From assembly GCA_014687725.1 (NCBI GenBank), contig GCA_014687725.1_4094.1: 64,000 bases of DNA. One strand, given 5' to 3'. The position numbers were made by a program, and so were the translations under genes. This DNA comes from a phage. The notes below the pieces were generated by a model. The model was not told the origin of the DNA. It ran no database searches and saw only the letters and a program-made list of their open reading frames with translations. This document shows positions 1-14,028 of the stretch, piece by piece. Within the stretch, counting starts at the first letter, position 1, and each line of letters begins with the position of its first letter.

Positions 1-1
1 A

Positions 2-190
2 GCACTGGTTAAATCTATGCGGGAACATGCCGACAAAATCGGCGTACAAGATCCAGCCGTTTGCTTCTGCGACGAATTGAATGATGATACCCTGGTAATA
101 GCAGAAGTCCAGGACGTTTCTAACTATTCCTCGCGTTACACTGGCGGCGTAGCAAATAAAGGTGACTTCTGTTTATACCTTACAAAATAA
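2..190 (+). CDS. hypothetical protein, C-terminal fragment (5' end outside window)
   Basis: Frame open from window edge to TAA 188-190, followed directly by a terminator hairpin; not in ORF track because no start codon in window. Confidence 0.4.
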   Translation, partial: ALVKSMREHADKIGVQDPAVCFCDELNDDTLVIAEVQDVSNYSSRYTGGVANKGDFCLYLTK

Positions 191-192
191 CA

Positions 193-226
193 ACGCGGGG
201 AGATAATAACTCCCCGTTACTTTTTC
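193..226 (+). terminator. rho-independent terminator
   Basis: GC stem ACGCGGGGAG/CTCCCCGT with 7-nt loop followed by T-run, right after stop codon. Confidence 0.6.
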
Positions 227-356
227 AGTACTGAATCATTTAATAGACGGATCTCGGCACCCGGTGGGTTAGTGACTGTTTCGTCTTGATGTAGTAATTA
301 TGCCAGTACTGGATGCACTTGTCAACAACTATTTTTCAAATACTTTTTATTAAAAT

Positions 357-412
357 ACTTGCAATTAGTTTTTAAACGCGTATAATGTTTTGCATAGGGG
401 GAGCGGTTCCCC
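357..412 (+). promoter_or_regulatory. class I early promoter + 5'UTR stem-loop cassette (PeSL-like)
   Basis: -35-like ACTTGCA 357-363, TATAAT 381-386, conserved TTTTGCAT, hairpin GGGGGAGCGGTTCCCC 397-412, then SD AAGGA. Confidence 0.6.
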
Positions 413-433
413 TGGTAACTAAGGAATAAGAAA

Positions 434-670
434 ATGGTCGAACAAATCAAATCAACGTCTTCGAATGTAACGGGAACGGTAGCACACTTTACTAGTGATG
501 AATCGCGGGGCGTTCCCTATTGTGCTGTACATGTAAACACTGAGGGTAACTACTGGTTTACGGTTTACGGATCATATTCATTTGGACGGCCAGGGCATCA
601 AAAAATTCTGGATAAAGTACAACCAACGGGTAAAAATATCACTGCCGAAATGTTTTATAAAAAATCATAA
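434..670 (+). CDS. hypothetical small protein (78 aa)
   Basis: ATG with SD AAGGA upstream; follows class I cassette. Confidence 0.7.
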   Translation: MVEQIKSTSSNVTGTVAHFTSDESRGVPYCAVHVNTEGNYWFTVYGSYSFGRPGHQKILDKVQPTGKNITAEMFYKKS

Positions 671-673
671 AGT

Positions 674-734
674 ACTTGATAATAGTTTTTAGTACTGTAT
701 AATATTTTACATCGCAAGGGGGAGCGGTTCCCCC
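674..734 (+). promoter_or_regulatory. class I early promoter + 5'UTR stem-loop cassette
   Basis: TTGATA 676-681, TATAAT 698-703, hairpin GGGGGAGCGGTTCCCCC 718-734. Confidence 0.6.
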
Positions 735-754
735 TGGTAACTAAGGATAATCAA

Positions 755-1054
755 ATGAAAATTGCAATCATCGCCCTGGCTTTATCTGTTTCCTCTTTCG
801 CTGTTAATGCGTCATTAGATGTAAGTAGTGAAAAATTCATTCAGTGCACTGTTGCAATGACCGATGAAAGTACTGGCGAGATTGTTTTAAAGGATTTAGA
901 GATCCAGCCAGAAGCATTTAAAAACGGGCCGTTCCATGAAGAAGACGAAAAAGGTAGCACGACAATTTATTACGATGCAAGTACTAAACGCGGTTCGGTC
1001 ACTGTTATGGATACTGAGAAAGTTACATTCACTGGCGTAATTAATTGTTTATAA
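755..1054 (+). CDS. small secreted/periplasmic protein (predicted signal peptide)
   Basis: N-terminus MKIAIIALALSVSSFAVNA = hydrophobic core + AxA-type cleavage motif; SD AAGGA. Confidence 0.7.
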   Translation: MKIAIIALALSVSSFAVNASLDVSSEKFIQCTVAMTDESTGEIVLKDLEIQPEAFKNGPFHEEDEKGSTTIYYDASTKRGSVTVMDTEKVTFTGVINCL

Positions 1055-1071
1055 TATAGTACTGAATCACT

Positions 1072-1100
1072 AGCCCACTATAAGAAGTGGGCTTTTTTTA
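1072..1100 (+). terminator. rho-independent terminator
   Basis: stem AGCCCACT/AGTGGGCT followed by T7 run. Confidence 0.8.
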
Positions 1101-1150
1101 TTGTAGTATTGTAGTACTGGTATACTTTGAAAATAGTTTTAAAAAAGTAG

Positions 1151-1178
1151 TTGACATTACCAGGGAAAAGCGTAGAAT
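1151..1178 (+). promoter_or_regulatory. sigma70-like promoter with ~115-nt leader
   Basis: TTGACA 1151-1156, 16-nt spacer, TAGAAT 1173-1178. Confidence 0.5.
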
Positions 1179-1292
1179 GTATTACATCAAGACGGGGAAC
1201 ACTAAGTAGACCGCCAGTAAGTCGAATGAAAAACTGGACACGTCAAACAAACTTTGATAAACTAACTTAAACTTTAATTGAGGATTTATAAA

Positions 1293-1775
1293 ATGGCTAA
1301 TGTAAAATCATTTCTGAAAGCACTGATTTCTAACGATACTGTTATTGCTGCTGAATTGCTGGCTGACCTGGATAATGATACCATGAAAGCAGTACGCAAC
1401 AATTTTAACATTGCTTACAGTGAAGCGAAAGAACTACAAGCCAAAAAGGTAGCAGAACTGGAAGAACAGAAAAAAGCCCGTGAAGCAGAACTGCAAGCAA
1501 CAATAGAAAGTATTCAGGCGGCGGTGTCTGGTTTAGATCTGGAAGTGGTTATTGAAATGGCACATAAAGCCCTGGCGGTTAAGTACGGTGAAGATAAGCC
1601 GGAATCTAAGCCTAAAAAATGGATTCAAGAACGTGTTACGGTTGTCCTTGATAACGGGGAAGAACATTTGATTCCTGTACGCGGTAACTGCATTGCGGTA
1701 GTACTGGATGCAATCAAAGAAAGCGGTATGACTCGCGAGGAATGGATCGAAGCTCACCGCAAAGTTGAAGCATAA
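1293..1775 (+). CDS. hypothetical protein (160 aa)
   Basis: ATG 1293 with SD GAGGA 8 nt upstream; track ORF began at in-frame TTG 1278. Confidence 0.75.
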   Translation: MANVKSFLKALISNDTVIAAELLADLDNDTMKAVRNNFNIAYSEAKELQAKKVAELEEQKKAREAELQATIESIQAAVSGLDLEVVIEMAHKALAVKYGEDKPESKPKKWIQERVTVVLDNGEEHLIPVRGNCIAVVLDAIKESGMTREEWIEAHRKVEA

Positions 1776-1796
1776 CAATTAAAGTACTGAATCACT

Positions 1797-1823
1797 AGCC
1801 CACTGTATAAGTGGGCTTTTTTG
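1797..1823 (+). terminator. rho-independent terminator
   Basis: stem AGCCCACT/AGTGGGCT + T-run; near-identical to terminator at 1072-1100. Confidence 0.8.
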
Positions 1824-1839
1824 TGTTTATCGTTTACCA

Positions 1840-1912
1840 GGCCACCAGCACCGCCTAGAATCGATTCTAACGCATTAAACTGATTATCTGATGCATCGCC
1901 CTAGCTGGTGGC
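1840..1912. repeat. inverted-repeat element with opposed Chi octamers flanking a perfect 14-bp palindrome
   Basis: CCACCAGC 1842-1849, palindrome TAGAATCGATTCTA 1856-1869, GCTGGTGG 1904-1911. Confidence 0.5.
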
Positions 1913-1975
1913 GTTAAGGTCGTTAGAATGCGATTGAGGACGTTTAAAGTATTTTGCAAAAAGTAATAAAAAGTA

Positions 1976-2036
1976 CTTGCACGATTAAGAGATTAGCGTA
2001 TAATGTTTTACATCGAGAGGGGGAAACGGTTCTCCT
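1976..2036 (+). promoter_or_regulatory. class I early promoter + 5'UTR stem-loop cassette
   Basis: -35-like TTGCAC 1977-1982, TATAAT 1999-2004, GGGGGAAACGGTTCTCC hairpin in leader. Confidence 0.55.
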
Positions 2037-2059
2037 TCCAAATCAAAGGAATCAAAACA

Positions 2060-2287
2060 ATGGCTATCGTAATCGCTTATGTAACTGGTACTACTGGCAC
2101 TTCTTCTACTGTTGCTGTAATTACCAACAAGAAAGGTGCGGAATTACATTCTGCAATGGATACCTGGGCGGTAAATGAGTTCGGTCAGTGGGCAAGTGTA
2201 GCATATGTTGAAACCTATCAAGTGCCAACCATTAGCTTAACGGATCTCGGTGTAGATCGTATCCTTTGCCTGGATGAATTAAATTAA
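2060..2287 (+). CDS. hypothetical small protein (75 aa)
   Basis: ATG 2060 with SD AAAGGA; track ORF start 2003 lies in promoter -10/leader. Confidence 0.7.
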   Translation: MAIVIAYVTGTTGTSSTVAVITNKKGAELHSAMDTWAVNEFGQWASVAYVETYQVPTISLTDLGVDRILCLDELN

Positions 2288-2373
2288 AAAAGTACTTGCA
2301 AAGTAAATCAGATAAAGTATAATACATTACATCAAGGGGAGAAATGGTTCTCCCTGATAATGAGGAAACTAAT

Positions 2374-2517
2374 ATGAAAACTTGTCAATGTGGTAAAAAA
2401 TCTATTACTGGTTTAAAGCGGGGCGTTGCTCTTTGCCAGTACCATTATAATTTACAAGTATGGGGTAAAGAATGGGCCGACCAGGTGGAAGCAGCAAAGA
2501 AAGCAAAAAGTAAGTAA
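2374..2517 (+). CDS. Cys-rich small protein (47 aa)
   Basis: ATG with SD GAGGAA behind class I cassette; C-x-C...C-x2-H pattern; below track size cut-off. Confidence 0.55.
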   Translation: MKTCQCGKKSITGLKRGVALCQYHYNLQVWGKEWADQVEAAKKAKSK

Positions 2518-2528
2518 AATTATTATCA

Positions 2529-2566
2529 CAGTACTATTGACATAGATTGATAGTACTGGCATAATA
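2529..2566 (+). promoter_or_regulatory. class II promoter with palindromic -35 region
   Basis: TTGACA 2537-2542, 17-nt spacer, CATAAT 2560-2565; -35 embedded in near-palindrome CAGTACTATTGA..TGATAGTACTG. Confidence 0.55.
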
Positions 2567-2598
2567 GATTTTATCAAGACAACTAAGAGGAAACAATA

Positions 2599-2811
2599 AT
2601 GGCTATCATCACAAAAATCAAAGTAAACAAATCACTGGTTAAGCTGGAAGAAGTGAAAGAAGGTTATAAAGTATCGTGGTGCGGCATGTATCGGATTTTT
2701 ACAGATGTTGACGATGCAATCAATTACTACACTGACACGGTAAAAAACTTTGTTCGTGCTGATGTGGTTATGGCAGTGGCAACACACAAAGCATCGAAAG
2801 AAAGTAAGTAA
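2599..2811 (+). CDS. hypothetical small protein (70 aa)
   Basis: ATG with SD AGAGGAA. Confidence 0.7.
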   Translation: MAIITKIKVNKSLVKLEEVKEGYKVSWCGMYRIFTDVDDAINYYTDTVKNFVRADVVMAVATHKASKESK

Positions 2812-2822
2812 AAATATTATCA

Positions 2823-2860
2823 CAGTACTATTGACATAGTTTGATAGTACTGGCATAATA
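2823..2860 (+). promoter_or_regulatory. class II promoter (duplicate of 2529-2566 block)
   Basis: TTGACA 2831-2836, CATAAT 2854-2859; ~80-nt block incl. leader nearly identical to 2508-2590. Confidence 0.55.
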
Positions 2861-2892
2861 GATTTTATCAAGACAACTAAGAGGAAATTAAA

Positions 2893-3237
2893 ATGGCTAA
2901 TATCAACACTATCGCAAAACAAAATATCAACCTGTCTTCTGTTGAAGTTGTACATATTGCCGCTCGGCGTTGGTTCCAGGCTTCATATGGTAACACTTAT
3001 TTCTCTTTAAGTGTAGACGTAGAAATTGATGGTAATTTTATTGAAGTAGTAAACGTGCCGTTCCAATATGGATACGGGGATCACTTTGACACTGTAGCAA
3101 TGGAAGAATTTAGCAAGGTTATTAATATGGAAGATAAAGAGTTTTTACGCGGTTCTTATCTTTCCCGTTTTTGCCGTGACAATAATATCACTGTTTACAG
3201 TTCGGTAACTGATGTTAAACGCAAAAAAGATCTTTAA
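2893..3237 (+). CDS. hypothetical protein (114 aa)
   Basis: ATG with SD AGAGGAA. Confidence 0.7.
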   Translation: MANINTIAKQNINLSSVEVVHIAARRWFQASYGNTYFSLSVDVEIDGNFIEVVNVPFQYGYGDHFDTVAMEEFSKVINMEDKEFLRGSYLSRFCRDNNITVYSSVTDVKRKKDL

Positions 3238-3317
3238 TTAGCTTTACTTTATGCAGATACTTTGATATAGTGTCTGCATAGGGGAAAGAAATTAAATTAA
3301 CTTAAGAGGATAGTATA

Positions 3318-3587
3318 ATGAAAAATATCAGTACTTTAATTGATGCAGGTACACATGTTCGGCGGTCTATGGTTGCAACCAGTACTACAAAACAAGTAGC
3401 GAGCGGTTATCTTGTATTTGTGCACGATGGTAAACTCCTGGAACGTTCAATCAATTTTGATGTTAAAAACAATTGCCGTTTTATTATCTTTAAGCGTGAA
3501 CAATATAAAATTGATTTACCAGCGAAGCCCATAAGCGGGGCGTATAACGTCTATTCATTGTTTGAGCGTCAACCATACACCTATTAA
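3318..3587 (+). CDS. hypothetical protein (89 aa)
   Basis: ATG with SD AAGAGGA. Confidence 0.65.
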   Translation: MKNISTLIDAGTHVRRSMVATSTTKQVASGYLVFVHDGKLLERSINFDVKNNCRFIIFKREQYKIDLPAKPISGAYNVYSLFERQPYTY

Positions 3588-3638
3588 TCAAAACATCGTT
3601 AGCGGTCGATTTAGGCCGCTTATATTGGGGATTATACC

Positions 3639-3911
3639 ATGAACGTTAATCAAGTACTGAATGAGATCGAAAGCATCATTAAACCGATGAAGCGTACTGA
3701 TGCTATGTTAACACCGGAAGAATGCCGCCTTTATGAGCGTTACAGCGTCGAACAAGTCCAGGCAATGGCTATGGCTACGCCAGCCGTTAAACCGCCTGAG
3801 AATGCGTTACAGGACGTTACAGGGGATTATATCATCAATCCAGTACTAGGGAAGATGGCTGCAATCACCGAAGATCAACAAGACTACTTAAGCCAGTACT
3901 TAAAAGGTTAA
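3639..3911 (+). CDS. hypothetical protein (90 aa)
   Basis: ATG preceded by G-rich SD-like TTGGGGA; hairpin upstream. Confidence 0.65.
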   Translation: MNVNQVLNEIESIIKPMKRTDAMLTPEECRLYERYSVEQVQAMAMATPAVKPPENALQDVTGDYIINPVLGKMAAITEDQQDYLSQYLKG

Positions 3912-3916
3912 TTAAT

Positions 3917-4126
3917 ATGCTTACTGTACAGGATAAGATCGACATCTTAAAGGTTAATATGTATGTGATTGATGCAGTACCTGGTAAAGTATTTGCATAC
4001 GATGACACCACTGTAAGCGATTTCTACTATAGCCAGGACGTGGGGGATCTTTCTGTACAGTCGGTTATTGAAAACGTAGTTAATGCAGCGTATGAGCATT
4101 TACTTTCAAATAGTACTTGCAATTAG
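3917..4126 (+). CDS. hypothetical protein (69 aa)
   Basis: ATG 6 nt after previous stop, SD AAAAGG. Confidence 0.6.
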   Translation: MLTVQDKIDILKVNMYVIDAVPGKVFAYDDTTVSDFYYSQDVGDLSVQSVIENVVNAAYEHLLSNSTCN

Positions 4127-4176
4127 TTTTTAAACGCGTATAATGTTTTACATGAAGGGGAGAAATGATTCTCCCC
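4116..4176 (+). promoter_or_regulatory. class I early promoter + 5'UTR stem-loop cassette
   Basis: TTGCAA 4117-4122, TATAAT 4139-4144, hairpin GGGGAGAAATGATTCTCCCC 4157-4176. Confidence 0.6.
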
Positions 4177-4195
4177 ACTAATTAAGGAATATGAA

Positions 4196-4342
4196 ATGAA
4201 AGCATCAAAAAAGAGTAATACTAAGAAAGCACGTTCACCTTTCGCTGGGGTATTCCCTTTACGTTTCGTTGATGAAGTGGTTTCCTACCCGCCTGGCCTT
4301 ACTCCTGAGATGGTAGAAAGTTTGCGTAAATCTAAAAAATAA
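4196..4342 (+). CDS. basic small protein (48 aa)
   Basis: ATG with SD AAGGAA; below track size cut-off. Confidence 0.55.
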   Translation: MKASKKSNTKKARSPFAGVFPLRFVDEVVSYPPGLTPEMVESLRKSKK

Positions 4343-4344
4343 TA

Positions 4345-4405
4345 CTTGCAATTAGTTTTTAGTACTGTATAATAGTTTACATGAAGGGGAGAAATAGTTC
4401 TCCCC
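4345..4405 (+). promoter_or_regulatory. class I early promoter + 5'UTR stem-loop cassette
   Basis: TTGCAA 4346-4351, TATAAT 4368-4373, hairpin GGGGAGAAATAGTTCTCCCC 4386-4405. Confidence 0.6.
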
Positions 4406-4423
4406 AATAACAGGAGAAACAAA

Positions 4424-4576
4424 ATGAAACAATATAATGCTCGGATGGATGTAACTATCGGTAACGGCAAAGGTCAATTCTCTTTCAGTACTCGCAAAAG
4501 TTATACAGAAAACTTCCTGCGTAATTGTGCACTGACCGCCGCACAAATTAAACATTACTTTCAGGCTAAAAAATGA
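4424..4576 (+). CDS. hypothetical small protein (50 aa)
   Basis: ATG with SD AGGAGA; below track cut-off. Confidence 0.55.
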   Translation: MKQYNARMDVTIGNGKGQFSFSTRKSYTENFLRNCALTAAQIKHYFQAKK

Positions 4577-4662
4577 AATCATTAGCTTATTACAGTTCGG
4601 CCCTGGTCGGTGCATTGATCGCGGCATTGTTAGTAACCTATCTATTCTTTATGGTGATTTAA
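4573..4662 (+). CDS. 29-aa hydrophobic peptide (one predicted TM helix)
   Basis: ATGA overlap with upstream stop; MKSLAYYSSALVGALIAALLVTYLFFMVI. Confidence 0.4.
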   Translation: MKSLAYYSSALVGALIAALLVTYLFFMVI

Positions 4663-4800
4663 ATGAATCCTAACGGTTTAATTTACAGTACTCCTAAAAC
4701 GAAAGCAGATAAAGCGAAAGCACGTAAAGCGAAAGTAAAGGAGTACATCAAGCAAGGCATGACGCGAAAGGCGGCAATTCTAAAAGCTAAAAATAAATGA
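4663..4800 (+). CDS. lysine-rich small protein (45 aa)
   Basis: ATG directly after upstream TAA; followed by R1 terminator. Confidence 0.45.
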   Translation: MNPNGLIYSTPKTKADKAKARKAKVKEYIKQGMTRKAAILKAKNK

Positions 4801-4808
4801 AAAAAAAA

Positions 4809-4895
4809 GTGGTTGACTTCGGTCAGCCATTTTGCTATTATGTATTCATTGAGAGATAGCTCACTAGCCCACAGGGTGCATAAGTGTATCTATTG
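4809..4895 (+). repeat. R1 terminator-promoter cassette, copy A (divergent)
   Basis: hairpin TGGTTGACTTCGGTCAGCCA 4810-4829 + T-run; TTGACT 4813-4818 inside hairpin, 17-nt spacer, TATTAT 4836-4841; 3' box AGCCCACAGGGTGCATAAGTGTATCTATTG. Confidence 0.55.
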
Positions 4896-4944
4896 TATAA
4901 TGATTGAGTACTGAAAACTATTTTAAAGTATTTGATAAAAAGTA

Positions 4945-5004
4945 CTTGCATACTATCTCAATAGGCGTATAATGTTTTACATCGCAAGGGGAAACGGTTT
5001 CCCC
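4945..5004 (+). promoter_or_regulatory. class I early promoter + 5'UTR stem-loop cassette
   Basis: CTTGCA 4945-4950, TATAAT 4968-4973, hairpin GGGGAAACGGTTTCCCC 4988-5004. Confidence 0.6.
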
Positions 5005-5024
5005 TGGTAATAAGGAAACGAATC

Positions 5025-5366
5025 ATGACTATTGCAATTGCTCAATCTAACTTTGAAAACGAAATCATCGCTCAGGCACTGCGTTTAAATGATGGTCGGG
5101 CCGAAATCAATTACGGTTTCAATAGTGGTGGATGTGAAAAATATCAGTACTTTATAACTGCTGATGGCGGTGTCCTGGGCATCAATACCGTTATTGTAAA
5201 CATTCAGAAAATTAATTTCAATGATCCAGACGATAGCCAGTTTTACATCACGGGCGTAGACGTGAACTATGAGGATGACTCACTAACTGATGATCACACT
5301 GGTGAGAAGTTAGAAAGTGCATACGGTGAAGATGATTATCAGTCCGGTCCAGAAGATTTCGAATAA
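5025..5366 (+). CDS. hypothetical acidic protein (113 aa)
   Basis: ATG with SD AAGGAA. Confidence 0.7.
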   Translation: MTIAIAQSNFENEIIAQALRLNDGRAEINYGFNSGGCEKYQYFITADGGVLGINTVIVNIQKINFNDPDDSQFYITGVDVNYEDDSLTDDHTGEKLESAYGEDDYQSGPEDFE

Positions 5367-5458
5367 TATTAAAAAATAGTTTGACAATAGTTTTTAGTAC
5401 TGTATAATAGTTTACATGAAGGGGAGAAATGATTCTCCCCACTAAGAGGAAAAACAAA

Positions 5459-5671
5459 ATGGCTAATATCCGCACTGTACTGAAAAATGCAAAACAAGTT
5501 TTATTTTCTGATCATGAAAATTTCAACAAGGATATCACAGGTGTTCGGAATATCAAAGATGTAAAAAGTGTTATGGGTATCTATTGCAATATGAAACGTG
5601 TTGGCACGTTCGGCGATAAAGTACTATACCAGGCAGGGGATTACAATTTTACACTGACTATCATTAACTAA
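5459..5671 (+). CDS. hypothetical small protein (70 aa)
   Basis: ATG 5459 with SD AGAGGA; track start 5429 lies inside leader hairpin. Confidence 0.7.
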   Translation: MANIRTVLKNAKQVLFSDHENFNKDITGVRNIKDVKSVMGIYCNMKRVGTFGDKVLYQAGDYNFTLTIIN

Positions 5672-5684
5672 AAATATTATCACA

Positions 5685-5720
5685 GTACTATTGACAACGT
5701 TTGATAGTACTGGCATAATA
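5685..5720 (+). promoter_or_regulatory. class II palindromic promoter
   Basis: TTGACA 5691-5696, CATAAT 5714-5719; CAGTACTATTGACA..TGATAGTACTG. Confidence 0.55.
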
Positions 5721-5762
5721 ACTTTTATCAAGACAACGCATATTAATTTAAGGAATACTAAA

Positions 5763-5942
5763 ATGGCTATTATCGCAAAAACTGAAATCATCGGCCTGGA
5801 TTCTATCATCATGACGTTTGAAGATCAAAAAGGGATGTATGTAGTTTCCTATGGTGATTATGTTCGGGAGTATGAAACGGTAGACGAAGCCTTTGAAAGT
5901 TACATTCGCCAGGTGAATAAAGCATACGACGACTACCGCTAA
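5763..5942 (+). CDS. hypothetical small protein (59 aa)
   Basis: ATG 5763 with SD AAGGAA; track ORF started in promoter. Confidence 0.6.
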   Translation: MAIIAKTEIIGLDSIIMTFEDQKGMYVVSYGDYVREYETVDEAFESYIRQVNKAYDDYR

Positions 5943-5961
5943 AATATATTACCAGTACTAT

Positions 5962-5997
5962 TAAATCTATTGACAATGATTGATAGTACAGTATAAT
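5962..5997 (+). promoter_or_regulatory. class II palindromic promoter
   Basis: TTGACA 5970-5975, TATAAT 5992-5997. Confidence 0.5.
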
Positions 5998-6041
5998 AAG
6001 TTTTATAAACAGTAGTTAACTTAACCTAAGAGAGAAACAAA

Positions 6042-6185
6042 ATGATCGCACTGGATTCATTCATCGACGCAGTACTGGCAAAAACTGGCGAGGATCTGAC
6101 CGCAGAACAATACGCGATGATCGAGCAATGCCAGCAAAACGGTAAATCGGTGAAAGATACTGTTAAGATTATCCGCAAGATGTAA
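6042..6185 (+). CDS. hypothetical small protein (47 aa)
   Basis: ATG with SD AAGAGAGA; below track cut-off. Confidence 0.55.
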   Translation: MIALDSFIDAVLAKTGEDLTAEQYAMIEQCQQNGKSVKDTVKIIRKM

Positions 6186-6191
6186 GAATAT

Positions 6192-6220
6192 AGCCCACTG
6201 GTTAACGCTGGTGGGCTTTA
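6192..6220 (+). terminator. terminator-like hairpin containing a Chi octamer
   Basis: stem AGCCCAC/GTGGGCT with 12-nt loop, weak T-tract; GCTGGTGG 6207-6214. Confidence 0.4.
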
Positions 6221-6290
6221 ATCATTTACCCTATACAATGCCAGTACTAAACCGTTTAACTCGTTAGAATGCATTACAGGACGTTTAACA

Positions 6291-6488
6291 ATGATTAGCA
6301 TGAAATCAGTACAAAAACAAATTGATACATTATCAAAAATTAAACGTAAACAATACTCATTAGAATATACAATCAATGGTAACTATCATCTAATGAAAGA
6401 GAATAATTTCATAGTCATTGATGAATCATTGCAAGTTATTAGTATAGTACTGAAAGCATTAATCAATGACAGAAAAAAGTTAAAATAA
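6291..6488 (+). CDS. hypothetical small protein (65 aa), weak
   Basis: Track ORF; poor SD, very AT-rich. Confidence 0.35.
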   Translation: MISMKSVQKQIDTLSKIKRKQYSLEYTINGNYHLMKENNFIVIDESLQVISIVLKALINDRKKLK

Positions 6489-6492
6489 TCTA

Positions 6493-6521
6493 TTGACAAA
6501 TTATGCCAGTACTGGCATAAT
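6493..6521 (+). promoter_or_regulatory. class II-type promoter
   Basis: TTGACA 6493-6498, 17-nt spacer, CATAAT 6516-6521. Confidence 0.55.
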
Positions 6522-6583
6522 ACTTACATCAAGACGAGAACGTCACTAACCCATAGGGTGCACAAATGTAGCTGTCTAATATT

Positions 6584-6614
6584 GATCAAAAAATGATCTG
6601 ATCAATACTTGATC
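6584..6614. promoter_or_regulatory. GATC cluster within repeated TGATCA motifs (4 GATC in 31 bp)
   Basis: GATC at 6584, 6595, 6600, 6611; sits in a 330-bp gene-free region. Confidence 0.5.
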
Positions 6615-6819
6615 AATTTGCGTAAAGTAGTATAATTCTATGCAGTTGGTTAGACGAAAGGTTATGATTAGTAGTGGAAGTGTATAAAAATTTTCATGGT
6701 GTGGTGATCCGCACATATGGGGATGAATATGTCGTGTCGTATGGATTGGAAAAAGTAAGAACAAGTAATATACTTGTCGCGTTACAGTACTATAGTATTT
6801 TTATAATGAGGTTAAAATA

Positions 6820-7077
6820 ATGGCTGTAGGATTCACGAAAGATGGGGCCGAGCAAGACGAGATTAACGCAGTGATTCAGGCCGCTGTTAACCACGCTAGA
6901 ACGCAAATTAACGCACAAATAGAATCACTGATACATTGCCTCGACTGCGGCGATATAATCCCTGAGAAACGACGCCAGGCCGTTAAGGGATGTAAGTACT
7001 GCATAACTTGCCAGGAGGATCATGATAGTACTTTTAAACGTCCCCCGCGTAATTGTTGGCATAGATCTATGAGATAA
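6820..7077 (+). CDS. DksA/TraR-family C4 zinc-finger protein
   Basis: CLDCGDIIPEKRRQAVKGCKYC matches the TraR/DksA zinc-finger signature (CxxC...GxxIPxxRRxA...CxxC). Confidence 0.75.
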   Translation: MAVGFTKDGAEQDEINAVIQAAVNHARTQINAQIESLIHCLDCGDIIPEKRRQAVKGCKYCITCQEDHDSTFKRPPRNCWHRSMR

Positions 7078-7083
7078 AAAGTA

Positions 7084-7111
7084 TTGACAGTACTGAAAGA
7101 TAGTGTATAAT
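7084..7111 (+). promoter_or_regulatory. sigma70-like promoter
   Basis: TTGACA 7084-7089, 16-nt spacer, TATAAT 7106-7111. Confidence 0.5.
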
Positions 7112-7140
7112 ATTTTATATCTTAACTGAGGATTGAAATC

Positions 7141-7497
7141 ATGGGAATACAACATATCACGCGTACTACTGACAATGGCGAGATCACTGGCTATCAAGTA
7201 CAGGGCAAAGTAGCACAATTGCAGTACTGGTTTGTTAAACGTGGAATCATTGCACCGGATCTTGATTATGACCGTGTAGCGTTTATTGATTCTCTTTATG
7301 TTGATCCTGATAGTCGGGGCAATGGTGAAGGTAACGAATTAATGAATGCCTTTATTGATGCCGCCGATGATTCAGATTGTATCATTTTAGAATGCGATAC
7401 GGGAGAAGATAACGCCTTTAATCTTAAAGAATGGTACGAAGGTTTCGGATTCGAGGTACTGATCGATAGTGAATATCCTATCATGATTTTATCATAG
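7141..7497 (+). CDS. GNAT-family acetyltransferase-like protein (118 aa)
   Basis: VDPDSRGNGEGNELMNAF resembles the acetyl-CoA-binding R/QxxGxG/A loop; family call tentative. Confidence 0.6.
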   Translation: MGIQHITRTTDNGEITGYQVQGKVAQLQYWFVKRGIIAPDLDYDRVAFIDSLYVDPDSRGNGEGNELMNAFIDAADDSDCIILECDTGEDNAFNLKEWYEGFGFEVLIDSEYPIMILS

Positions 7498-7575
7498 TAC
7501 TTGCATTTAGTTTTCAGTACTGTTATAGTACTTACATCAAGGGGAAACATCTTCCCCTACTAAGAGGAAATAAAA

Positions 7576-7764
7576 ATGGAAAACTTATCAAGTATTTTAG
7601 TACAAGATGATTTCGGTAATCCTGGAAGTGCTATCATTGTTCGGGGTAATAAAGCAACATTTGTTATTGCTGGTGGACCTGTACAGCGTAGCATTAAAAA
7701 TAATGCTGTTACCATTAATAATGTACGCTATCGCTTAGATAAAGAATTGATTCATAAACTTTAA
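7576..7764 (+). CDS. hypothetical small protein (62 aa)
   Basis: ATG with SD AAGAGGAA behind class I cassette. Confidence 0.65.
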   Translation: MENLSSILVQDDFGNPGSAIIVRGNKATFVIAGGPVQRSIKNNAVTINNVRYRLDKELIHKL

Positions 7765-7848
7765 AAAGTATTTGACAATAGATTATAGTACTGTATAATA
7801 AGTTACATGAAGGGGTGAAATGATTCTCCCCACTAAGAGGAAAGAAAA

Positions 7849-8061
7849 ATGCAAGGTCAACTAATCGTTCGTAAATGGTCTGATACTAACGAAAAACCGT
7901 GGGATGTACAATACATCGGACCGGATGGGGTATCACGTTATCAGCCTGGCGTAACGCATAGTACTGAGCAATTCGCAAACGCTCACCGCGAACGCCTGTT
8001 AGAATCCATGAAACAGGGATTCTGTGAAAAATTCATTCAAGATCATTGGCTGAAAGATTAA
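7849..8061 (+). CDS. hypothetical small protein (70 aa)
   Basis: ATG with SD AAGAGGAA behind class I cassette. Confidence 0.7.
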   Translation: MQGQLIVRKWSDTNEKPWDVQYIGPDGVSRYQPGVTHSTEQFANAHRERLLESMKQGFCEKFIQDHWLKD

Positions 8062-8078
8062 TATAAGGAGTACAGCTT

Positions 8079-8171
8079 ATGCAAATGAATCCGATGATTA
8101 TTGTTTTAGCTGTACTTATGATCATTCATGCAATAGTAGAAGTATTAACGCAATCAGGAGTAATAAAATGA
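8079..8171 (+). CDS. 30-aa hydrophobic peptide
   Basis: ATG 8 nt after SD AAGGAG; MQMNPMIIVLAVLMIIHAIVEVL...; below track cut-off. Confidence 0.45.
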   Translation: MQMNPMIIVLAVLMIIHAIVEVLTQSGVIK

Positions 8172-8341
8172 TTCAAGTAGAATTATCAGTACTGAAAGAT
8201 CTGTTTTATCGGTTAGGTACTACTGGCGAGTATCCTAAAAGTGATACCGCAAAACTTTTTGTATCACTCGACTTATGGCAACGCGAACAATTAGTAATGT
8301 CCTGGCGTAAAGGTAAAGCAGATAGCGAGGTGAAAGCATGA
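8168..8341 (+). CDS. hypothetical small protein (57 aa)
   Basis: ATGA overlap with upstream stop; below track cut-off. Confidence 0.5.
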   Translation: MIQVELSVLKDLFYRLGTTGEYPKSDTAKLFVSLDLWQREQLVMSWRKGKADSEVKA

Positions 8342-8487
8342 AAGAATTCTTATTCGAAGTAGTGTTTCAAGGTGTCGGTAGTAACCAACTGATTCGCTCA
8401 AGTGGTTACAATGTTAACCAGGCATGGAATAACATTAAACAAATGTACCCGAACGCTATCACCTATCGCAACCCGAAACAAGTTTAA
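8338..8487 (+). CDS. hypothetical small protein (49 aa)
   Basis: ATGA overlap with upstream stop; followed by R1 terminator. Confidence 0.5.
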   Translation: MKEFLFEVVFQGVGSNQLIRSSGYNVNQAWNNIKQMYPNAITYRNPKQV

Positions 8488-8494
8488 AAATAAT

Positions 8495-8585
8495 TGAAAA
8501 AGGGATTGACTCCGGTCAGTCCCTTTGCTATTATATACGCATAGAAACAAATCAGCCCACAGGGTGCATAAATGTATCTATTGTT
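8495..8585 (+). repeat. R1 terminator-promoter cassette, copy B
   Basis: A-run + hairpin GGGATTGACTCCGGTCAGTCCC 8502-8523 + T-run; TTGACT 8506-8511, 17-nt spacer, TATTAT 8529-8534; 3' box ..AGCCCACAGGGTGCATAAATGTATCTATTG. Confidence 0.6.
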
Positions 8586-8812
8586 TGCTGGTGGCTAGTA
8601 CTATCAAGTACTGAAAACTATTTTTAAAAAAGTACTTGCATTGTACTTAGAATCAAGTATAATGTTTTACATCAGGACGGGGAACGAAACAAGTAACCCC
8701 GTTAAGTAGTCCAGGAGTAAGACATAAGAAAACCTCCCCTGATAAAATAGTTTGACAATAGAAAGTAAACGAGTATAATACTTACATCAACCACTGATAA
8801 GGAAACATTAAA

Positions 8813-9088
8813 ATGCGGATTCTACTGACAGCTAACGAAATCGAACAAGTACTGACTACTAACCTGGAAGACTGGAAACGTGAAGCAGATATCCAGGCGG
8901 TTCAACGGCTTAACGATGAGTTAACGCCGGATGACTTAAGCAAGATTGTAGATCCTCAATTCTACGAAGATATCCACGACACCGCGTTAAGCGTCGAGGA
9001 TGTACTAGATAAGCACTACATTGATATTGATTTGCAGGTTTACGGTCGTAAAAACTTTATCACTATTCACGACATTTACAATAATTAA
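8813..9088 (+). CDS. hypothetical protein (91 aa)
   Basis: ATG with SD AAGGAA; two promoters upstream. Confidence 0.7.
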   Translation: MRILLTANEIEQVLTTNLEDWKREADIQAVQRLNDELTPDDLSKIVDPQFYEDIHDTALSVEDVLDKHYIDIDLQVYGRKNFITIHDIYNN

Positions 9089-9174
9089 GTATTGACAAAG
9101 TATCTTAGTACTGTATAATAGTTTACATCGAGAGGGGGAATGGTTCCCCTCCTAACAAAGAGAGAGAAATAAAA

Positions 9175-9357
9175 ATGGCTAAATGCACTATCTGTAAGAA
9201 AGAAATCGTATTAGTTCCAAGTGCCCGTGAACGTGCCGCTCGGTTCGGTGGCAAACCGTCAGACTATACAAAAATGTTTACTGTCCATGCAGCTTGCCAG
9301 GTAGCAAAACGTTCACAAGAAAGCGTAGAATTAATGCGTAAACTTTCCAAAAAATAA
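9175..9357 (+). CDS. hypothetical small protein (60 aa), Cys-containing
   Basis: ATG with SD AGAGAGA behind class I cassette. Confidence 0.7.
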   Translation: MAKCTICKKEIVLVPSARERAARFGGKPSDYTKMFTVHAACQVAKRSQESVELMRKLSKK

Positions 9358-9445
9358 GTATTGACAAAGTATCTTAGTACTGTATAATAGTTTACATCAA
9401 GTGAGGGGAAACGGTTCCCCTCCTAACAAAGAGAGAGAAATAAAA

Positions 9446-9769
9446 ATGGCTATGATCCTTGCCCAGAAAGTAGAACTGAAAATTGTAACCTCCTTTGACA
9501 TTAAAGTTAATCGGTGGACTGATTCACACGGCAATACTTACCACTCTTGCTACGTGTCTGCGTTAATTGGTGATCGTTGGGAAGACCTGGGACATGAAAC
9601 CTTTACATACGGTTACGGCACACAAGGCGAATACACGGGCTTGGAGATCATTAAAGAAACCGTTATAGGTTTCAACCCGAAAGAAACAGTTATTCACCGC
9701 ATCGAGGAAGAGATCAACAAAGAAATAACAGTTCGATACTACGATGTAAAACGTAAGAAAGATATGTAA
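9446..9769 (+). CDS. hypothetical protein (107 aa)
   Basis: ATG 9446; track start 9401 is a GTG inside the leader hairpin; cassette 9355-9445 duplicates 9084-9174. Confidence 0.7.
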   Translation: MAMILAQKVELKIVTSFDIKVNRWTDSHGNTYHSCYVSALIGDRWEDLGHETFTYGYGTQGEYTGLEIIKETVIGFNPKETVIHRIEEEINKEITVRYYDVKRKKDM

Positions 9770-9855
9770 TAGAATCCATTTAAAGTACTATTTGACATTG
9801 CCCAGATAGTACTTTATAATAGACTCTAACTTGTAGTACTAACTCAACTAATAGG

Positions 9856-10260
9856 ATGTATACCATGATTACTAAATTCTACGCTACCCGTGAAGCTGCC
9901 CGTATTGTTGCACGCGAGGAAGGAGCAGCATTTAAAGACATGGGCAAAGATGCACCGAAAGGCCAACGCTGGGCCGTACAGTTCAAAGAGATCTCTGATA
10001 TTGTGAATTCACCTGAGCCAGTACTAACAGCAGCAGAACTAAAACGAGCGGATTTACTGGCGTCAATACTTGATGCACAAGATGAGTTTATCGCTGATTC
10101 TGATATCAAAGTACAGACAAACCATACCGCTTGGACTCACGCGGATCACCTGGCAAACCTGAAGCGTCCAAGTGAACTGGTACGCAACCAGAAAGAGATC
10201 CGACACGACCGTAAGGGTAATCGTGTAACAGTATACAGTAAACGCCGCCAGGTTATCTAA
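9856..10260 (+). CDS. hypothetical protein (134 aa)
   Basis: Track ORF; alternative ATG at 9865; GC-richer than neighbours. Confidence 0.7.
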   Translation: MYTMITKFYATREAARIVAREEGAAFKDMGKDAPKGQRWAVQFKEISDIVNSPEPVLTAAELKRADLLASILDAQDEFIADSDIKVQTNHTAWTHADHLANLKRPSELVRNQKEIRHDRKGNRVTVYSKRRQVI

Positions 10261-10282
10261 TAACTTGCAGTACTAACAACAC

Positions 10283-10308
10283 GGCGGGATCAGTTCCCGC
10301 CTTTTTTA
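10283..10308 (+). terminator. rho-independent terminator
   Basis: stem GGCGGGA/TCCCGCC + T6. Confidence 0.8.
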
Positions 10309-10321
10309 TAGGACAAACAAA

Positions 10322-10576
10322 ATGATTAAGGTTCAACTATATAAAGATAATATCTTGCGGGTACACTATAAAGCCCCTCAGAGAATCATCACAAAGGCCG
10401 TACAGCTTGCTAATGAGTTTATTAATGGTAACCTATTACCAAGGAAGTTAAGCAACGGAAAACTGCGTGTAATCGATGTAGACACTAACAACAGAATAGT
10501 AATTGAGAACACAGGAAAGATAAACCTATATGAACACCAACAATATAATAAGAAAATAAAACTAATATCACGTTGA
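10322..10576 (+). CDS. hypothetical protein (84 aa)
   Basis: ATG with SD AGGA. Confidence 0.6.
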   Translation: MIKVQLYKDNILRVHYKAPQRIITKAVQLANEFINGNLLPRKLSNGKLRVIDVDTNNRIVIENTGKINLYEHQQYNKKIKLISR

Positions 10577-10629
10577 CAGTACTCAATTGTTTTAGTACTA
10601 TGTACATATACCAACACGGGAGAAACAAA

Positions 10630-10848
10630 ATGAAATTATCTAAAATCGAAAAGAAAACTATTGATGAAGCAGTTAAGCACGGTTATACCTTTCGTAATGA
10701 TTCACATTTTACCAATTTTCAACAAGGGTATCGTACTATTAAAAAACTCATTGACAAAGGTTTATTAGTTGAAGTCAATAACGGCAATGGTATTGAGTAT
10801 CAACCAACACAAGACGCATTTTATTTTAAGAAATATAATATTATCTAA
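10630..10848 (+). CDS. hypothetical protein (72 aa)
   Basis: ATG 10630 with SD GGGAGAAA; track start 10573 is the TTG of the promoter -35. Confidence 0.65.
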   Translation: MKLSKIEKKTIDEAVKHGYTFRNDSHFTNFQQGYRTIKKLIDKGLLVEVNNGNGIEYQPTQDAFYFKKYNII

Positions 10849-10905
10849 TTGACAGTACTCAAATGTTTTAGTACTATATGTACATACCAACACGGGGAAA
10901 ACAAA

Positions 10906-11148
10906 ATGATTACTTTAGAAAAACGTATCAAAGAAACTACATCGCTGGTGGAACTGTTAACAGTACTGAAATGCCGTACTACTCGGTTTAGTACACCGGA
11001 CTTTATTAATATGGTTGATGTTAACGGTCGTTATCGCATTGCAGTAGAACAAGGAACAGCGAAAGTATTCAGTACTAAAAACACTAAGGAAGTGATTCAT
11101 GCTGTAAGTGTTAAAAAAGTAGTTGCCATTGATAGTAAAGTACTGTAA
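10906..11148 (+). CDS. hypothetical protein (80 aa)
   Basis: ATG 10906; promoter/leader block 10849-10905 duplicates 10563-10629. Confidence 0.65.
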   Translation: MITLEKRIKETTSLVELLTVLKCRTTRFSTPDFINMVDVNGRYRIAVEQGTAKVFSTKNTKEVIHAVSVKKVVAIDSKVL

Positions 11149-11179
11149 GATAGTTTCATTAACTCAAGGAGAACATGCA

Positions 11180-11764
11180 ATGCGTAATTATACTAAATTC
11201 ATCCGTACCCTGTCAGAAATGGAAACCAACAAAGAGATCCTTTCAGCTTGTCGGTTAGCTGGTCTGGAGATCATCGGTGCGGGTTCTTCCCGTATTGTAT
11301 TCGCTTTAAATGATCGGTTAGTGATCAAGGTCGCGAATTGTGATGCGGGTGTAGAACAAAATGAAACTGAATGTAAGGTATGGAATTTTTTAGATTATGA
11401 CCGCCCTCAATTGAAACAGTACTTTGCAAAGGTGCATATGCATTTATGCGATCCTGATAATATGTTTATCGTTATGGATCGGTTGAGTACTGCAAGTAAA
11501 GGCAGTGTAAAGCACGTAAACGCGTGCAATGAATTAAAGTACAATATTAAACGTAATGCCATTGAACGCCAGCACCGCTTTGCTGATGCACTACAACACG
11601 TTGATGATACATTATCAACACTAACGATAAGAGATATCAGAAAACAGAATATCGGCCAGGATCGTAATGGCCTTATTAAAGTACTTGATTACGGTTTAAC
11701 CCGCAATATCTGGAATCAGTACTATAAAAAGCGTGATGTAGAAGCAAGTAAGGTAACACGATAA
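11180..11764 (+). CDS. protein kinase-like protein (eukaryote-type kinase fold)
   Basis: Gly-rich loop GAGSSRIVF, VIKVA lysine, catalytic-loop-like IRDIRKQN, DFG-like DYG; ATG with SD AAGGAG. Confidence 0.75.
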   Translation: MRNYTKFIRTLSEMETNKEILSACRLAGLEIIGAGSSRIVFALNDRLVIKVANCDAGVEQNETECKVWNFLDYDRPQLKQYFAKVHMHLCDPDNMFIVMDRLSTASKGSVKHVNACNELKYNIKRNAIERQHRFADALQHVDDTLSTLTIRDIRKQNIGQDRNGLIKVLDYGLTRNIWNQYYKKRDVEASKVTR

Positions 11765-11771
11765 AAAAGAT

Positions 11772-11862
11772 TAAAAAAGGGATTGACTCCGGTCAGTCCC
11801 TTTGCTATTATATATTCATTGAGAGATAACTCACTGACCCATAGGGTGCGGAAGTGTATCTA
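11772..11862 (+). repeat. R1 terminator-promoter cassette, copy C
   Basis: hairpin 11779-11800; TTGACT 11783-11788, TATTAT 11806-11811. Confidence 0.6.
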
Positions 11863-11984
11863 TTATATAAGTATTCAGTACTGAAAACTATTTTAAAAAA
11901 GTACTTGCAATGTACTTAGAATCAAGTATAATGTTTTACATAGAGAGGGGGAAATGGTTCTCCCTGGTAATAAGGAATAAAATC

Positions 11985-12206
11985 ATGACTACAATGACTT
12001 GCATTTACGCTTCCAATCTTCTGAATGATGCGGCCTTTAATGTTGATTCAGAATATCAATGTTATCGGGATGAAAATAAAAAAGTTTTTGTAGTTGATAA
12101 TAATGGTTTCCATATTGAATTACAATCCGGTTTCACTGGTGTTGATGGTAAATCAGTGTGGGGCGTACAGGATGATAAAGGCACATATCATTTTAAACGT
12201 AATTAA
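11985..12206 (+). CDS. hypothetical small protein (73 aa)
   Basis: ATG 11985 with SD AAGGAA; track start 11910 is inside promoter/leader. Confidence 0.7.
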   Translation: MTTMTCIYASNLLNDAAFNVDSEYQCYRDENKKVFVVDNNGFHIELQSGFTGVDGKSVWGVQDDKGTYHFKRN

Positions 12207-12290
12207 GTATTGACAAAGTATATCAGTACTGTATAATAGTTTACATCAAGGGGAGAATAGTTCTCCCCGATACTAAAAGGAAACAAAATT

Positions 12291-12563
12291 ATGTCCAGCT
12301 ACTCCGCTACTATGATCATTAAAGATATGAACGGTAATCCTACTTCTGCTGGTGGATCATTTGGAAACATTAATTTAGATGGTCGGTTATCCATGCAATC
12401 AGCCATCGATGCAGCGAAAGAAGTTTTTAAGAATGAATGTACTGTTAGTAAGCTGGATTATATGGGATTCGCTATCGAGAAAACTAATCGTTTTGTGAAC
12501 TACAAAAATCCACTGATGATTGATACTAACCTGAAAGCTAACGAAGTGGGGTACTTATTATGA
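12291..12563 (+). CDS. hypothetical protein (90 aa)
   Basis: ATG with SD AAAGGAA behind class I cassette. Confidence 0.7.
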   Translation: MSSYSATMIIKDMNGNPTSAGGSFGNINLDGRLSMQSAIDAAKEVFKNECTVSKLDYMGFAIEKTNRFVNYKNPLMIDTNLKANEVGYLL

Positions 12564-12751: not shown

Positions 12752-12837
12752 AAAGTACTTGCATTGTAGTTAGATTAACGTATAATGTTTTACATAGAGC
12801 GGGGGAACTATTCCCCCGCCAGTCCAGGAGATACACC

Positions 12838-14017: not shown

Positions 14018-14028
14018 CAAAAAAGAAT

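Follow-up and report, generated by a model that had tools for sequence, protein, structure and literature searches.

Chi sites and a T5-related motif in an intergenic spacer of the long terminal repeat of an Asteriusvirus jumbo phage

Why should two opposed Chi sites bracket a perfect palindrome in a short intergenic spacer of a phage genome? The locus that raises this question, positions 1840-1950 of a 64,000-nt stretch of phage DNA (contig GCA_014687725.1_4094.1; hereafter the window), carries CCACCAGC at 1842-1849 and the host Chi octamer GCTGGTGG at 1904-1911. Both lie in perfectly complementary arms of 9 nt each, GCCACCAGC (1841-1849) and GCTGGTGGC (1904-1912), 54 nt apart; between them stands the perfect palindrome TAGAATCGATTCTA (1856-1869), and downstream follows a motif, CGTTAGAATGCGATTGAGGACGTTTAA (1921-1947). 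The first-pass annotation of this DNA listed these features and took them for a small mobile or regulatory module rather than random spacer. Direct reading confirms every listed feature, and the spacer is indeed not random, as its plus-strand Chi and its downstream motif recur and are conserved in relatives. The earlier annotation missed that the Chi sites are more than a local oddity: they belong to an array that spans the phage's entire terminal repeat. The real features of the locus are thus one member of a strand-biased Chi array and a terminal-repeat-specific motif shared with T5-like phages, and the unit originally proposed is not the functional one. We consider it probable, with some reserve, that 1840-1950 is an ordinary intergenic spacer inside the repeat, composite of parts and not one element, and that the functions we propose below for the array and the motif apply to it.

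Sequence comparison assigns the window to an Asteriusvirus jumbo phage of the PBECO4/121Q/phAPEC6 group, with genomes of ~350 kb; the spacer region is 90-98% identical to 38 Asteriusvirus jumbo-phage records, which comprise phages of E. coli and Salmonella. In the record of vB_Ec-M-J (EcMJ), positions 1-21525 are labelled ‘Direct Terminal Repeats’ (DTR). The DTR of fEgEco12 measures 20,993 bp, a PhageTerm result confirmed by restriction digests (PMC13070987). The enzymes cut fEgEco12 DNA as predicted (PMC13070987), so this DNA probably lacks heavy modification. Window 88 is the counterpart of EcMJ 5400, and window 15517 that of the DTR end, EcMJ 21525; window 1-15517 (plus strand) is therefore the DTR-equivalent part by EcMJ annotation and mapping, and the spacer sits ~7.4 kb into a DTR of ~21 kb. 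The genes of this part are small, monocistronic and early, and every gene has a near-consensus sigma-70 promoter and a leader hairpin to itself. GC content is ~38% here, against 32% beyond ~15.5 kb. Genome organisation shifts sharply at ~15517, from monocistronic genes with promoters and terminators inside the repeat to overlapping, tightly packed genes outside it. No match to the DTR was found among 5,426 E. coli genomes, which argues that it is not host-derived.

The window holds 11 Chi octamers on both strands where 0.37 are expected, and their distribution is far from even. Eight plus-strand sites fall within 1904-14155, against ~0.1 expected, and four of these eight are intergenic; the 48 kb of the window beyond the DTR part contain just one plus and one minus Chi. 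Within the window, the first of these is the site of our spacer (1904-1911) and the second stands at 6207-6214, carried in the 3’ arm of a terminator-family hairpin, AGCCCACTGGTTAACGCTGGTGGGCT (6192-6218, plus strand). The remaining plus-strand sites stand at 7669-7676 (coding, read as Ala-Gly-Gly), 8587-8594 (intergenic), 10944-10951 (coding, Leu-Val frame), 12348-12355 and 13925-13932 (both coding), and 14148-14155 (intergenic), where the array ends ~1.36 kb short of the right-hand DTR boundary. The DTR of EcMJ carries nine plus and two minus Chi compared with 0.18 and 0.07 expected (P ~5e-13); five of the nine are intergenic, Chi is the commonest GC-rich octamer on the plus strand of this repeat, and the 38 kb that follow it contain no plus-strand Chi. 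For the near-identical phage ECO103 4-12-1 the whole genome (351,992 bp) could be surveyed: nine of its 16 plus-strand Chi lie in the DTR equivalent, which makes up 6.0% of the genome (P = 8e-8), as do two of its 12 minus-strand Chi. Plus-strand Chi are thus 20 times as dense in the DTR as elsewhere in this 352-kb genome.

Comparison among relatives speaks to the maintenance of the array. In an alignment of the spacer in 14 relatives, on which the conservation counts for the spacer rest, none of the eight columns of Chi 1904 varies, the sole such segment of the spacer, and its flanks do vary; EJP2 keeps this Chi though all the sequence to its left has been replaced. Phage 121Q keeps eight of the nine EcMJ sites compared with 4.5 expected (P = 0.007), with flanks only 76-98% identical, and has gained one new Chi. 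Chi 6207 arises from four bases, GCTG, placed ahead of a conserved GTGGGCT stem, and the members of the same hairpin family at 1072 and 1797 are without Chi. Klebsiella is expected to use the same Chi as E. coli, and the more distant Klebsiella phage Muenster (Alcyoneusvirus), with a DTR syntenic with that of EcMJ and proteins 40-68% identical, has seven plus and one minus Chi in this repeat, at positions non-homologous to those of EcMJ, and none in the next 25 kb. The plus to minus ratios are 9:2 in EcMJ, 8:1 in the DTR part of the window, 9:1 in 121Q and 7:1 in Muenster. Taken together, these counts, the conservation of Chi 1904, the 121Q and Muenster comparisons and the origin of Chi 6207 indicate that selection acts on how many Chi the DTR carries and on their orientation, while individual sites turn over.

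Both minus Chi of the EcMJ DTR occur as inverted partners of a plus Chi: one, at EcMJ 7402, corresponds to the window site at 1842, and the other forms part of a tight double-Chi hairpin, GCCACCAGC-acaa-GCTGGTGG, at EcMJ 588-607, 0.6 kb from the left terminus. Three further minus Chi with a spacing of ~255 bp were seen in OR844650 (9277, 9535 and 9790 after reorientation), in the unique DNA ahead of the right terminal repeat, ~20 kb before the DTR start, where they probably sit in tandem paralogous genes.

Several points weigh against reading the array as a product of selection for recognition by RecBCD, the host enzyme that processes DNA ends and reads Chi as its signal. Chi exceeds dinucleotide expectation outside the DTR too, with 17 sites in 331 kb compared with ~2 expected, so that oligonucleotide or codon bias may account for some of the surplus. 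The strand bias of the four coding sites in the window is not fully separable from selection on orientation because all early genes lie on the plus strand. The minus-strand Chi of the spacer is polymorphic, and the DTR termini of this particular phage are placed by homology to its relatives. A different account makes the Chi excess a by-product: highly expressed early genes would favour the octamer through their codon or oligonucleotide bias, or a phage protein would read it in place of RecBCD. Such an account draws on the several-fold excess over Markov expectation outside the DTR, and on three of the window's four coding Chi, which share a frame that encodes Ala-Gly-Gly. It sits poorly, however, with the half of the sites that are intergenic, with sequence contexts that all differ and are unrelated, with the 20-fold contrast in density within one genome, and with an octamer that is exactly the host Chi, in an array kept by turnover in a Klebsiella phage. 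We therefore hold the by-product account to be very improbable and prefer selection on Chi itself.

How might such an array act? RecBCD reads 5’-GCTGGTGG-3’ on the strand with its 3’ end at the entry point, that is, when it approaches from the right as the sequence is written here (PMC12315714). The DTR would stand at both ends of the linear genome, and in the right-hand copy the plus-strand Chi would face the right terminus, the nearest of them ~1.4 kb in. A RecBCD enzyme that loaded on the right end and moved left would meet these sites from their 3’ side, cease degradation and load RecA. The genome would thereby be protected, and the terminal repeats could recombine into circles or concatemers and support recombination-primed replication. 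The minus Chi at 1842 might then be an optional and dispensable left-facing partner with the same role for RecBCD moving rightwards from the left end, and the minus Chi at EcMJ 588 would likewise face the left terminus. By analogy with P1 and the LLS-type lambdoid phages we infer that, on a linear genome that has been injected or is replicating, the array may limit degradation by RecBCD and channel RecA loading into recombination between the repeats.

A Chi array of this sort is a known kind of phage strategy. Terminally clustered Chi have been described for P1, for the lambdoid phage LLS and ~60 related lambdoids, and for the Pseudomonas phage MD8 (Genome Res 2025, PMC12315714, citing Subramaniam & Smith 2022). 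As in those phages, the host octamer is strongly over-represented here near a genome end or terminal redundancy, and the great majority of sites have the orientation that RecBCD would recognise on entry from there (nine against two here, 20 against three in LLS). Three features of the type, a count of the host octamer far above expectation, its concentration at a genome end and its orientation bias, are thus found in our phage group, with the reservations that the concentration at the genome end uses termini taken from relatives and that the orientation bias is shared with the early genes on the plus strand. The differences lie in the genomes concerned. The P1 and LLS type comprises temperate phages with cos or headful packaging, whereas ours is a virulent myovirus of ~350 kb with a fixed DTR of ~21 kb; here the array stands at both ends because it coincides with the repeat itself, and a minority of opposite-orientation Chi lies near the left end. 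A literature search found no paper reporting a Chi array for Asteriusvirus or Alcyoneusvirus. If our interpretation is correct, large virulent phages can counter RecBCD at their free ends by mimicking the host’s signals of ‘self’, without relying solely on an inhibitor or an end-capping protein, and can exploit RecBCD for recombination between their terminal repeats. The array would also offer a testable handle on circularisation and concatemer formation in genomes with 20-kb terminal repeats, and variation in recBCD and in Chi specificity would be predicted to affect host range, which is relevant to phage-therapy candidates in this genus.

If the plus-strand Chi belongs to an array, is there still a case for the inverted repeat around the palindrome as a structure in its own right? 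The spacer could encode a long hairpin or cruciform, with 1841-1849 and 1904-1912 as outer arms around a palindromic stem-loop, with a role as regulatory RNA, terminator or DNA cruciform. In the minimum-free-energy fold the 9-nt arms do pair, as does the palindrome; for DNA the fold reaches z = -2.5, and the double-Chi hairpin at EcMJ 588-607 is similar. The folding energy is unremarkable all the same: for RNA z = -1.8, and 10 of 200 shuffled sequences fold equally well or better. Changes in the outer stem are one-sided. The left arm, the minus-strand Chi, reads CCACCAGC in eight of the 14 relatives, CCACTAGC in four and CCGTCAGC in 121Q, and is absent from EJP2; none of these six alterations is met by a compensating change in the right arm, which is invariant because it is the Chi octamer. 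Covariation in the same alignment is no better than in controls (score 0.059, shuffle mean 0.057). The palindrome is broken as TAGAAACGATTCTA in four of 13 relatives and deleted in G17. The spacer is also probably poorly transcribed because it lies between a strong upstream terminator and the next promoter, and it has no match in Rfam. We regard a structured element as highly unlikely, and the opposed Chi arms around a palindrome, which the first-pass annotation put forward as the unit, are not conserved as such.

A different origin for the palindrome is suggested by EJP2, where TAGAATCAATTCTA, its homologue, forms the stem of a true terminator (GCCTGTAGAATCAATTCTACGGGC, then TTTTTT) directly after a different upstream gene. 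Because this homologue is a genuine terminator stem, the palindrome of the window is best read as a terminator relic from module replacement. The window version failed when assessed as an intrinsic terminator, as its 7-bp A+T-rich stem has no T-run; it would be a decaying stem left behind by module shuffling. The sequence CGTTAGAAT occurs three times compared with 0.5 expected, the third time on the minus strand within the palindrome (1864-1872). A reading of the palindrome as a generic operator of the form TAGAAT-N2-ATTCTA was rejected for lack of enrichment, and the generic palindrome pattern TAGAATNNATTCTA is not enriched (13 found, 10.7 expected). A scan of IMG/VR with an exact 25-mer from the palindrome region matched 121Q and no other entry.

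Other candidate functions for the spacer were considered and set aside. A tRNA-like reading of the 73-nt inverted repeat was dropped, as ARAGORN finds no tRNA or tmRNA in the window. A known RNA family was likewise rejected, as an Rfam scan of 1-16000 returned only a sub-threshold Trp_leader match, on the upstream terminator. The minus-strand open reading frame of 30 aa (1960-1868) that some automated annotations call is judged non-coding: although most relatives keep the frame open, it lacks an ATG start, is interrupted by a stop at codon 3 in A4 and by a frameshift in CMSTMSU, and shows mostly amino-acid-changing substitutions. A sigma-70 promoter at 1833-1861 (TTTACC-17-TAGAAT) has nine of 12 consensus positions, but its -35 element is not conserved in relatives.

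The second real feature of the locus is the motif downstream of Chi 1904. Its second copy, CGTTAGAATGCATTACAGGACGTTTAA, had been placed at 6264-6290 and lies at 6262-6288, 2 nt to the left; the earlier remark that it stands just after a Chi-containing hairpin is borne out by the terminator hairpin that carries Chi 6207. The 27-mer motif pattern has two matches in the window and 0.00 in shuffles. Including its flanks, copy 1 (core 1921-1947) spans 1912-1950 on the plus strand in phased units of ~10 bp, CGTTAAGGT, CGTTAGAATG, CGATTGAGGA and CGTTTAAAGT, with CGTT at 1912, 1921 and 1941 and CGAT at 1931. Copy 2 (core 6262-6288) spans 6253-6290, also on the plus strand, with CGTT at 6253, 6262 and 6282 and CATT at 6272, and abuts the ATG of a 65-aa gene (6291-6488, phrog_36844). 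The consensus of all copies consists of three tandem 10-bp units of the form CGtTtnAGGn. We searched for further copies at up to seven mismatches to the 27-mer on the 352-kb Asteriusvirus genome, and with a strict 25-nt pattern on whole T5-like contigs. The Asteriusvirus genome has exactly three copies, all on the plus strand and all in the DTR (shuffles, 0-1), the third being at EcMJ 1488, in the non-coding left edge of the DTR outside the window. A degenerate fourth copy, CGTTAGCGGTCGATTTAGGCCGCTTATATTGGGG, lies between two genes at 3597-3630 on the plus strand.

The same motif is found in phages of an unrelated group. Hundreds of T5-like phages agree with its consensus at 26 of 28 positions (E = 3e-3 in 2.3 Gb searched), and a degenerate-pattern scan of 2.9 million viral contigs returned almost exclusively T5-like contigs, plus 121Q. 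Window 1921-1945 equals T5 9271-9295 at 23 of 25 positions, and window 3610-3629, within the degenerate copy, equals T5 6200-6181 at 19 of 20, which makes this copy one of the IRB’ type. The T5 matches are the annotated inverted repeats B and B’ (IRB and IRB’; AY587007 5285-5310 and 6184-6209) together with a copy at 9271-9297 that the record does not annotate; it lies in the left terminal repeat, where palindromes C and D of the non-coding ‘Repeat Region 3’ flank it. The copies of T5 and Spc35 lie inside annotated terminal repeats, and those of other T5-like contigs stand in the same sequence contexts (41 contexts aligned). On this sequence evidence the downstream motif is homologous to IRB/IRB’. 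Both groups share the ~30-nt sequence CGTTAGAAWGCGNTNNAGGNCGYTT at between 23 of 25 and 26 of 28 positions, have three copies per terminal repeat with no others found on the same contigs, and place them in non-coding DNA, often 50-100 nt past a terminator. They differ in orientation, as T5-like copies occur in both and Asteriusvirus copies all lie on the plus strand, and in surroundings. Asteriusvirus copies adjoin promoters or start codons, two or three of them with Chi just upstream, whereas two of the three T5-like copies (IRB’ and 9271) have a LexA-box-like palindrome and paired DnaA boxes at constant spacing.

That palindrome, T5 palindrome D (TACTGTATAAATATACAGTA; 9330-9349 and 6135-6154), lies at a constant distance from the IRB’ and 9271 copies and is alike in all aligned T5-like loci. 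It fits the consensus of the LexA (SOS) box, TACTG(TA)5CAGTA. The word LexA is absent from the Davison preprint on the T5 repeat regions, and that preprint gives IRB no function (bioRxiv 10.1101/866236). Nowhere in the EcMJ DTR is there a palD palindrome (CTGTATA..TATACAG), a LexA box or a DnaA box (TTWTNCACA); within EcMJ 1-60000, DnaA-box sites number zero in the 21.5-kb DTR and ten in the next 38 kb.

Our best guess for the motif, held with low confidence, is a protein-binding DNA site specific to terminal-repeat DNA. The motif may instead act in RNA or in translation, since two copies immediately precede start codons, a point that counts against our guess. A comparison with the consensus sequences of PhoP, ArcA, CpxR, PmrA, MarA, Fis, IHF, H-NS, rrn boxA and LacI-family operators suggested no convincing fit. 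A more specific proposal makes the motif a promoter and 5’ leader, with TAGAAT as -10 element, then a GCATTACA-like start region and a Shine-Dalgarno sequence; the copy at 6262 would work as such, and that at 1921 would be a vestige. The motif does resemble the -10 and start part of the promoter at 1128-1199 (GCGTAGAATGTATTACATCAAGACGGGG), and the copy at 6262, which contains AGGA, ends 2 nt before the ATG of its 65-aa gene, which is conserved. No motif copy, however, has a -35 or extended -10 element at the right distance, and it is the missing -35 partner that makes a promoter reading weak. Furthermore, TAGAAT of copy 1 is changed in five of 14 relatives, its AGGA is peculiar to the window (relatives have mostly GAGAG), and no gene follows the motif in A4, in T5 or at EcMJ 1488. 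We find the promoter and leader proposal quite improbable and favour the protein-binding site.

Could the motif be the mobile module that the first-pass annotation envisaged? The motif, with or without Chi, might be a small mobile or recombination-junction cassette that homologous or site-specific recombination has spread, which would explain the copies common to Asteriusvirus and T5-like phages. There are several copies per DTR, and their edges coincide with mosaic breakpoints. In A4, homology to the window stops exactly at 6288, the 3’ end of the motif, and in EJP2 it starts just left of Chi 1904, the segment to the left having been replaced. The A4 locus of copy 2 has a consensus-form motif followed directly by a promoter, with no gene; this promoter is the one that stands at 7074-7120 in the window, and the genes that separate the motif (6288) from the gene at 7576 in the window (6289 to ~7560) are missing from A4, a DksA-like zinc-finger gene and an acetyltransferase gene among them. 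All three motif copies of 121Q have a plus-strand Chi 9-47 nt upstream. T5 and the window have other pieces in common as well, namely promoter upstream elements and a leader, TATCTCGTAGGGCGGCAATG, directly after a promoter, identical at 20 of 20 positions between window 14212-14231 and T5 5038-5019. In T5 this leader belongs to an unannotated promoter-like site in Repeat Region 1 (window 14182-14231; T5 5019-5075, minus strand). Against mobility, the copies number only three or four, the breakpoint evidence at the motif edges comes from two genomes, and no associated recombinase or endonuclease was found. The motif shows no sign of recent movement because its copy positions are conserved across the genus. 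There are no terminal inverted repeats or target-site duplications, and only the ~30-nt motif recurs: the 110-nt whole is not repeated, and a 131-nt query matches one place per DTR copy. Part of the earlier suggestion thus survives, in that the motif is a multi-copy sequence with three copies per genome, confined to the DTR and shared with T5-like phages; that it forms a mobile cassette we consider unlikely, and a bound site in terminal-repeat DNA remains our preferred reading.

It is tempting to extend the comparison with T5 to the repeats as a whole. The ~20-kb DTR of Rak2-like jumbo phages (Asteriusvirus and Alcyoneusvirus) might be the functional counterpart of the first-step-transfer DNA of T5. 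It would be the first DNA to enter, expressed by host RNA polymerase from dozens of consensus promoters and shielded from RecBCD by its Chi array, and the motif would be bound by a terminal-repeat factor that pauses or anchors entry or pairs the repeats. The resemblances are a long DTR packed with small genes of unknown function and strong sigma-70 promoters, a repeat-rich non-coding block at one edge (EcMJ 1-1760) and short regulatory modules in common. Homologues of T5 A1, A2 and dmp were not found in a tblastx comparison of the EcMJ DTR with T5 1-11000, which gave nothing at E <= 1 and has low sensitivity for remote homologues, and the DnaA-box array of the T5 type has no counterpart in the EcMJ DTR (0 boxes). 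We think this extension unlikely. The shared motif nevertheless links two unrelated phage groups that both have long terminal repeats filled with early genes; it provides a defined 30-bp probe for a factor that recognizes it, and could bear on the role of the non-coding repeat regions of T5.

The neighbourhood of the spacer is made up of similar small modules. The flanking genes are all assigned to PHROGs of unknown function. Upstream, the gene at 1293-1775 (phrog_27871) ends in an intrinsic terminator at 1797-1822 on the plus strand, AGCCCACT-gtat-AAGTGGGCT followed by a T-run, whose AGCCCAC...GTGGGCT stem belongs to the family with members at 1072 and 6192. Downstream, and outside the spacer element, the next gene (2060-2287) has a promoter and leader module at 1968-2042 on the plus strand, with TTGCAC at 1977-1982, a 16-nt spacer, TATAAT at 1999-2004 and then a leader hairpin; this module is one of 12 copies of a repeat family, D1, in window 1-16000. 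In A4, 121Q and G17 an extra 50-aa gene with its own promoter, absent from the window, lies between the spacer and the counterpart of this gene (952-1104 in the A4 locus and 951-1103 in the 121Q locus, numbered within each locus sequence). Arbiol and colleagues reportedly described, in 2010, PeSL (promoter-early stem-loop) cassettes in T4-type phages, and the architecture here is similar: each small early gene has a stem-loop and a near-identical early promoter at its flanks, and gene content is shuffled between relatives at these repeats. The likeness concerns the promoter modules beside the spacer, not the spacer with its Chi and motif.

Three kinds of repeat in and near the DTR are recorded here in their own right. 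The outer 1.7 kb of the EcMJ DTR (1-1760, outside the window) is non-coding and dense in short repeats, GACGGCTAAACGGCTAGAT..., TTTTGGGCGTA... and CAGTACTGA, and also holds the tight double-Chi hairpin at 588-607 and the motif copy at 1488, which may be counted as copy 0. The palindromic hexamer AGTACT is extremely over-represented, with 95 occurrences in window 1-15965 (1785-1790 and 1973-1978 are examples) and 138 in 15966-64000. In EcMJ the count is 140 for the first 21 kb and 41 for the next 21 kb, in Muenster it is 159 and 51, and T5 1-11000 has none; typical contexts of the hexamer are CAGTACTGA, AAGTACTTGCA and TAGTACTGTATAAT, often within promoters. Finally, a repeat family at 4806-4891, 8486-8580, 11763-11857 and 14020-14114 (also 6543-6573) has a promoter-like TTGACT-17-TATTAT inside a 12-bp hairpin, AAAGGGATTGACTCCGGTCAGTCCCTTT, and, ~40 nt further on, a conserved box, AGCCCACAGGGTGCATAAATGTATCT. 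Two copies are followed by a Chi, and the family may represent small RNA genes or regulated promoters.

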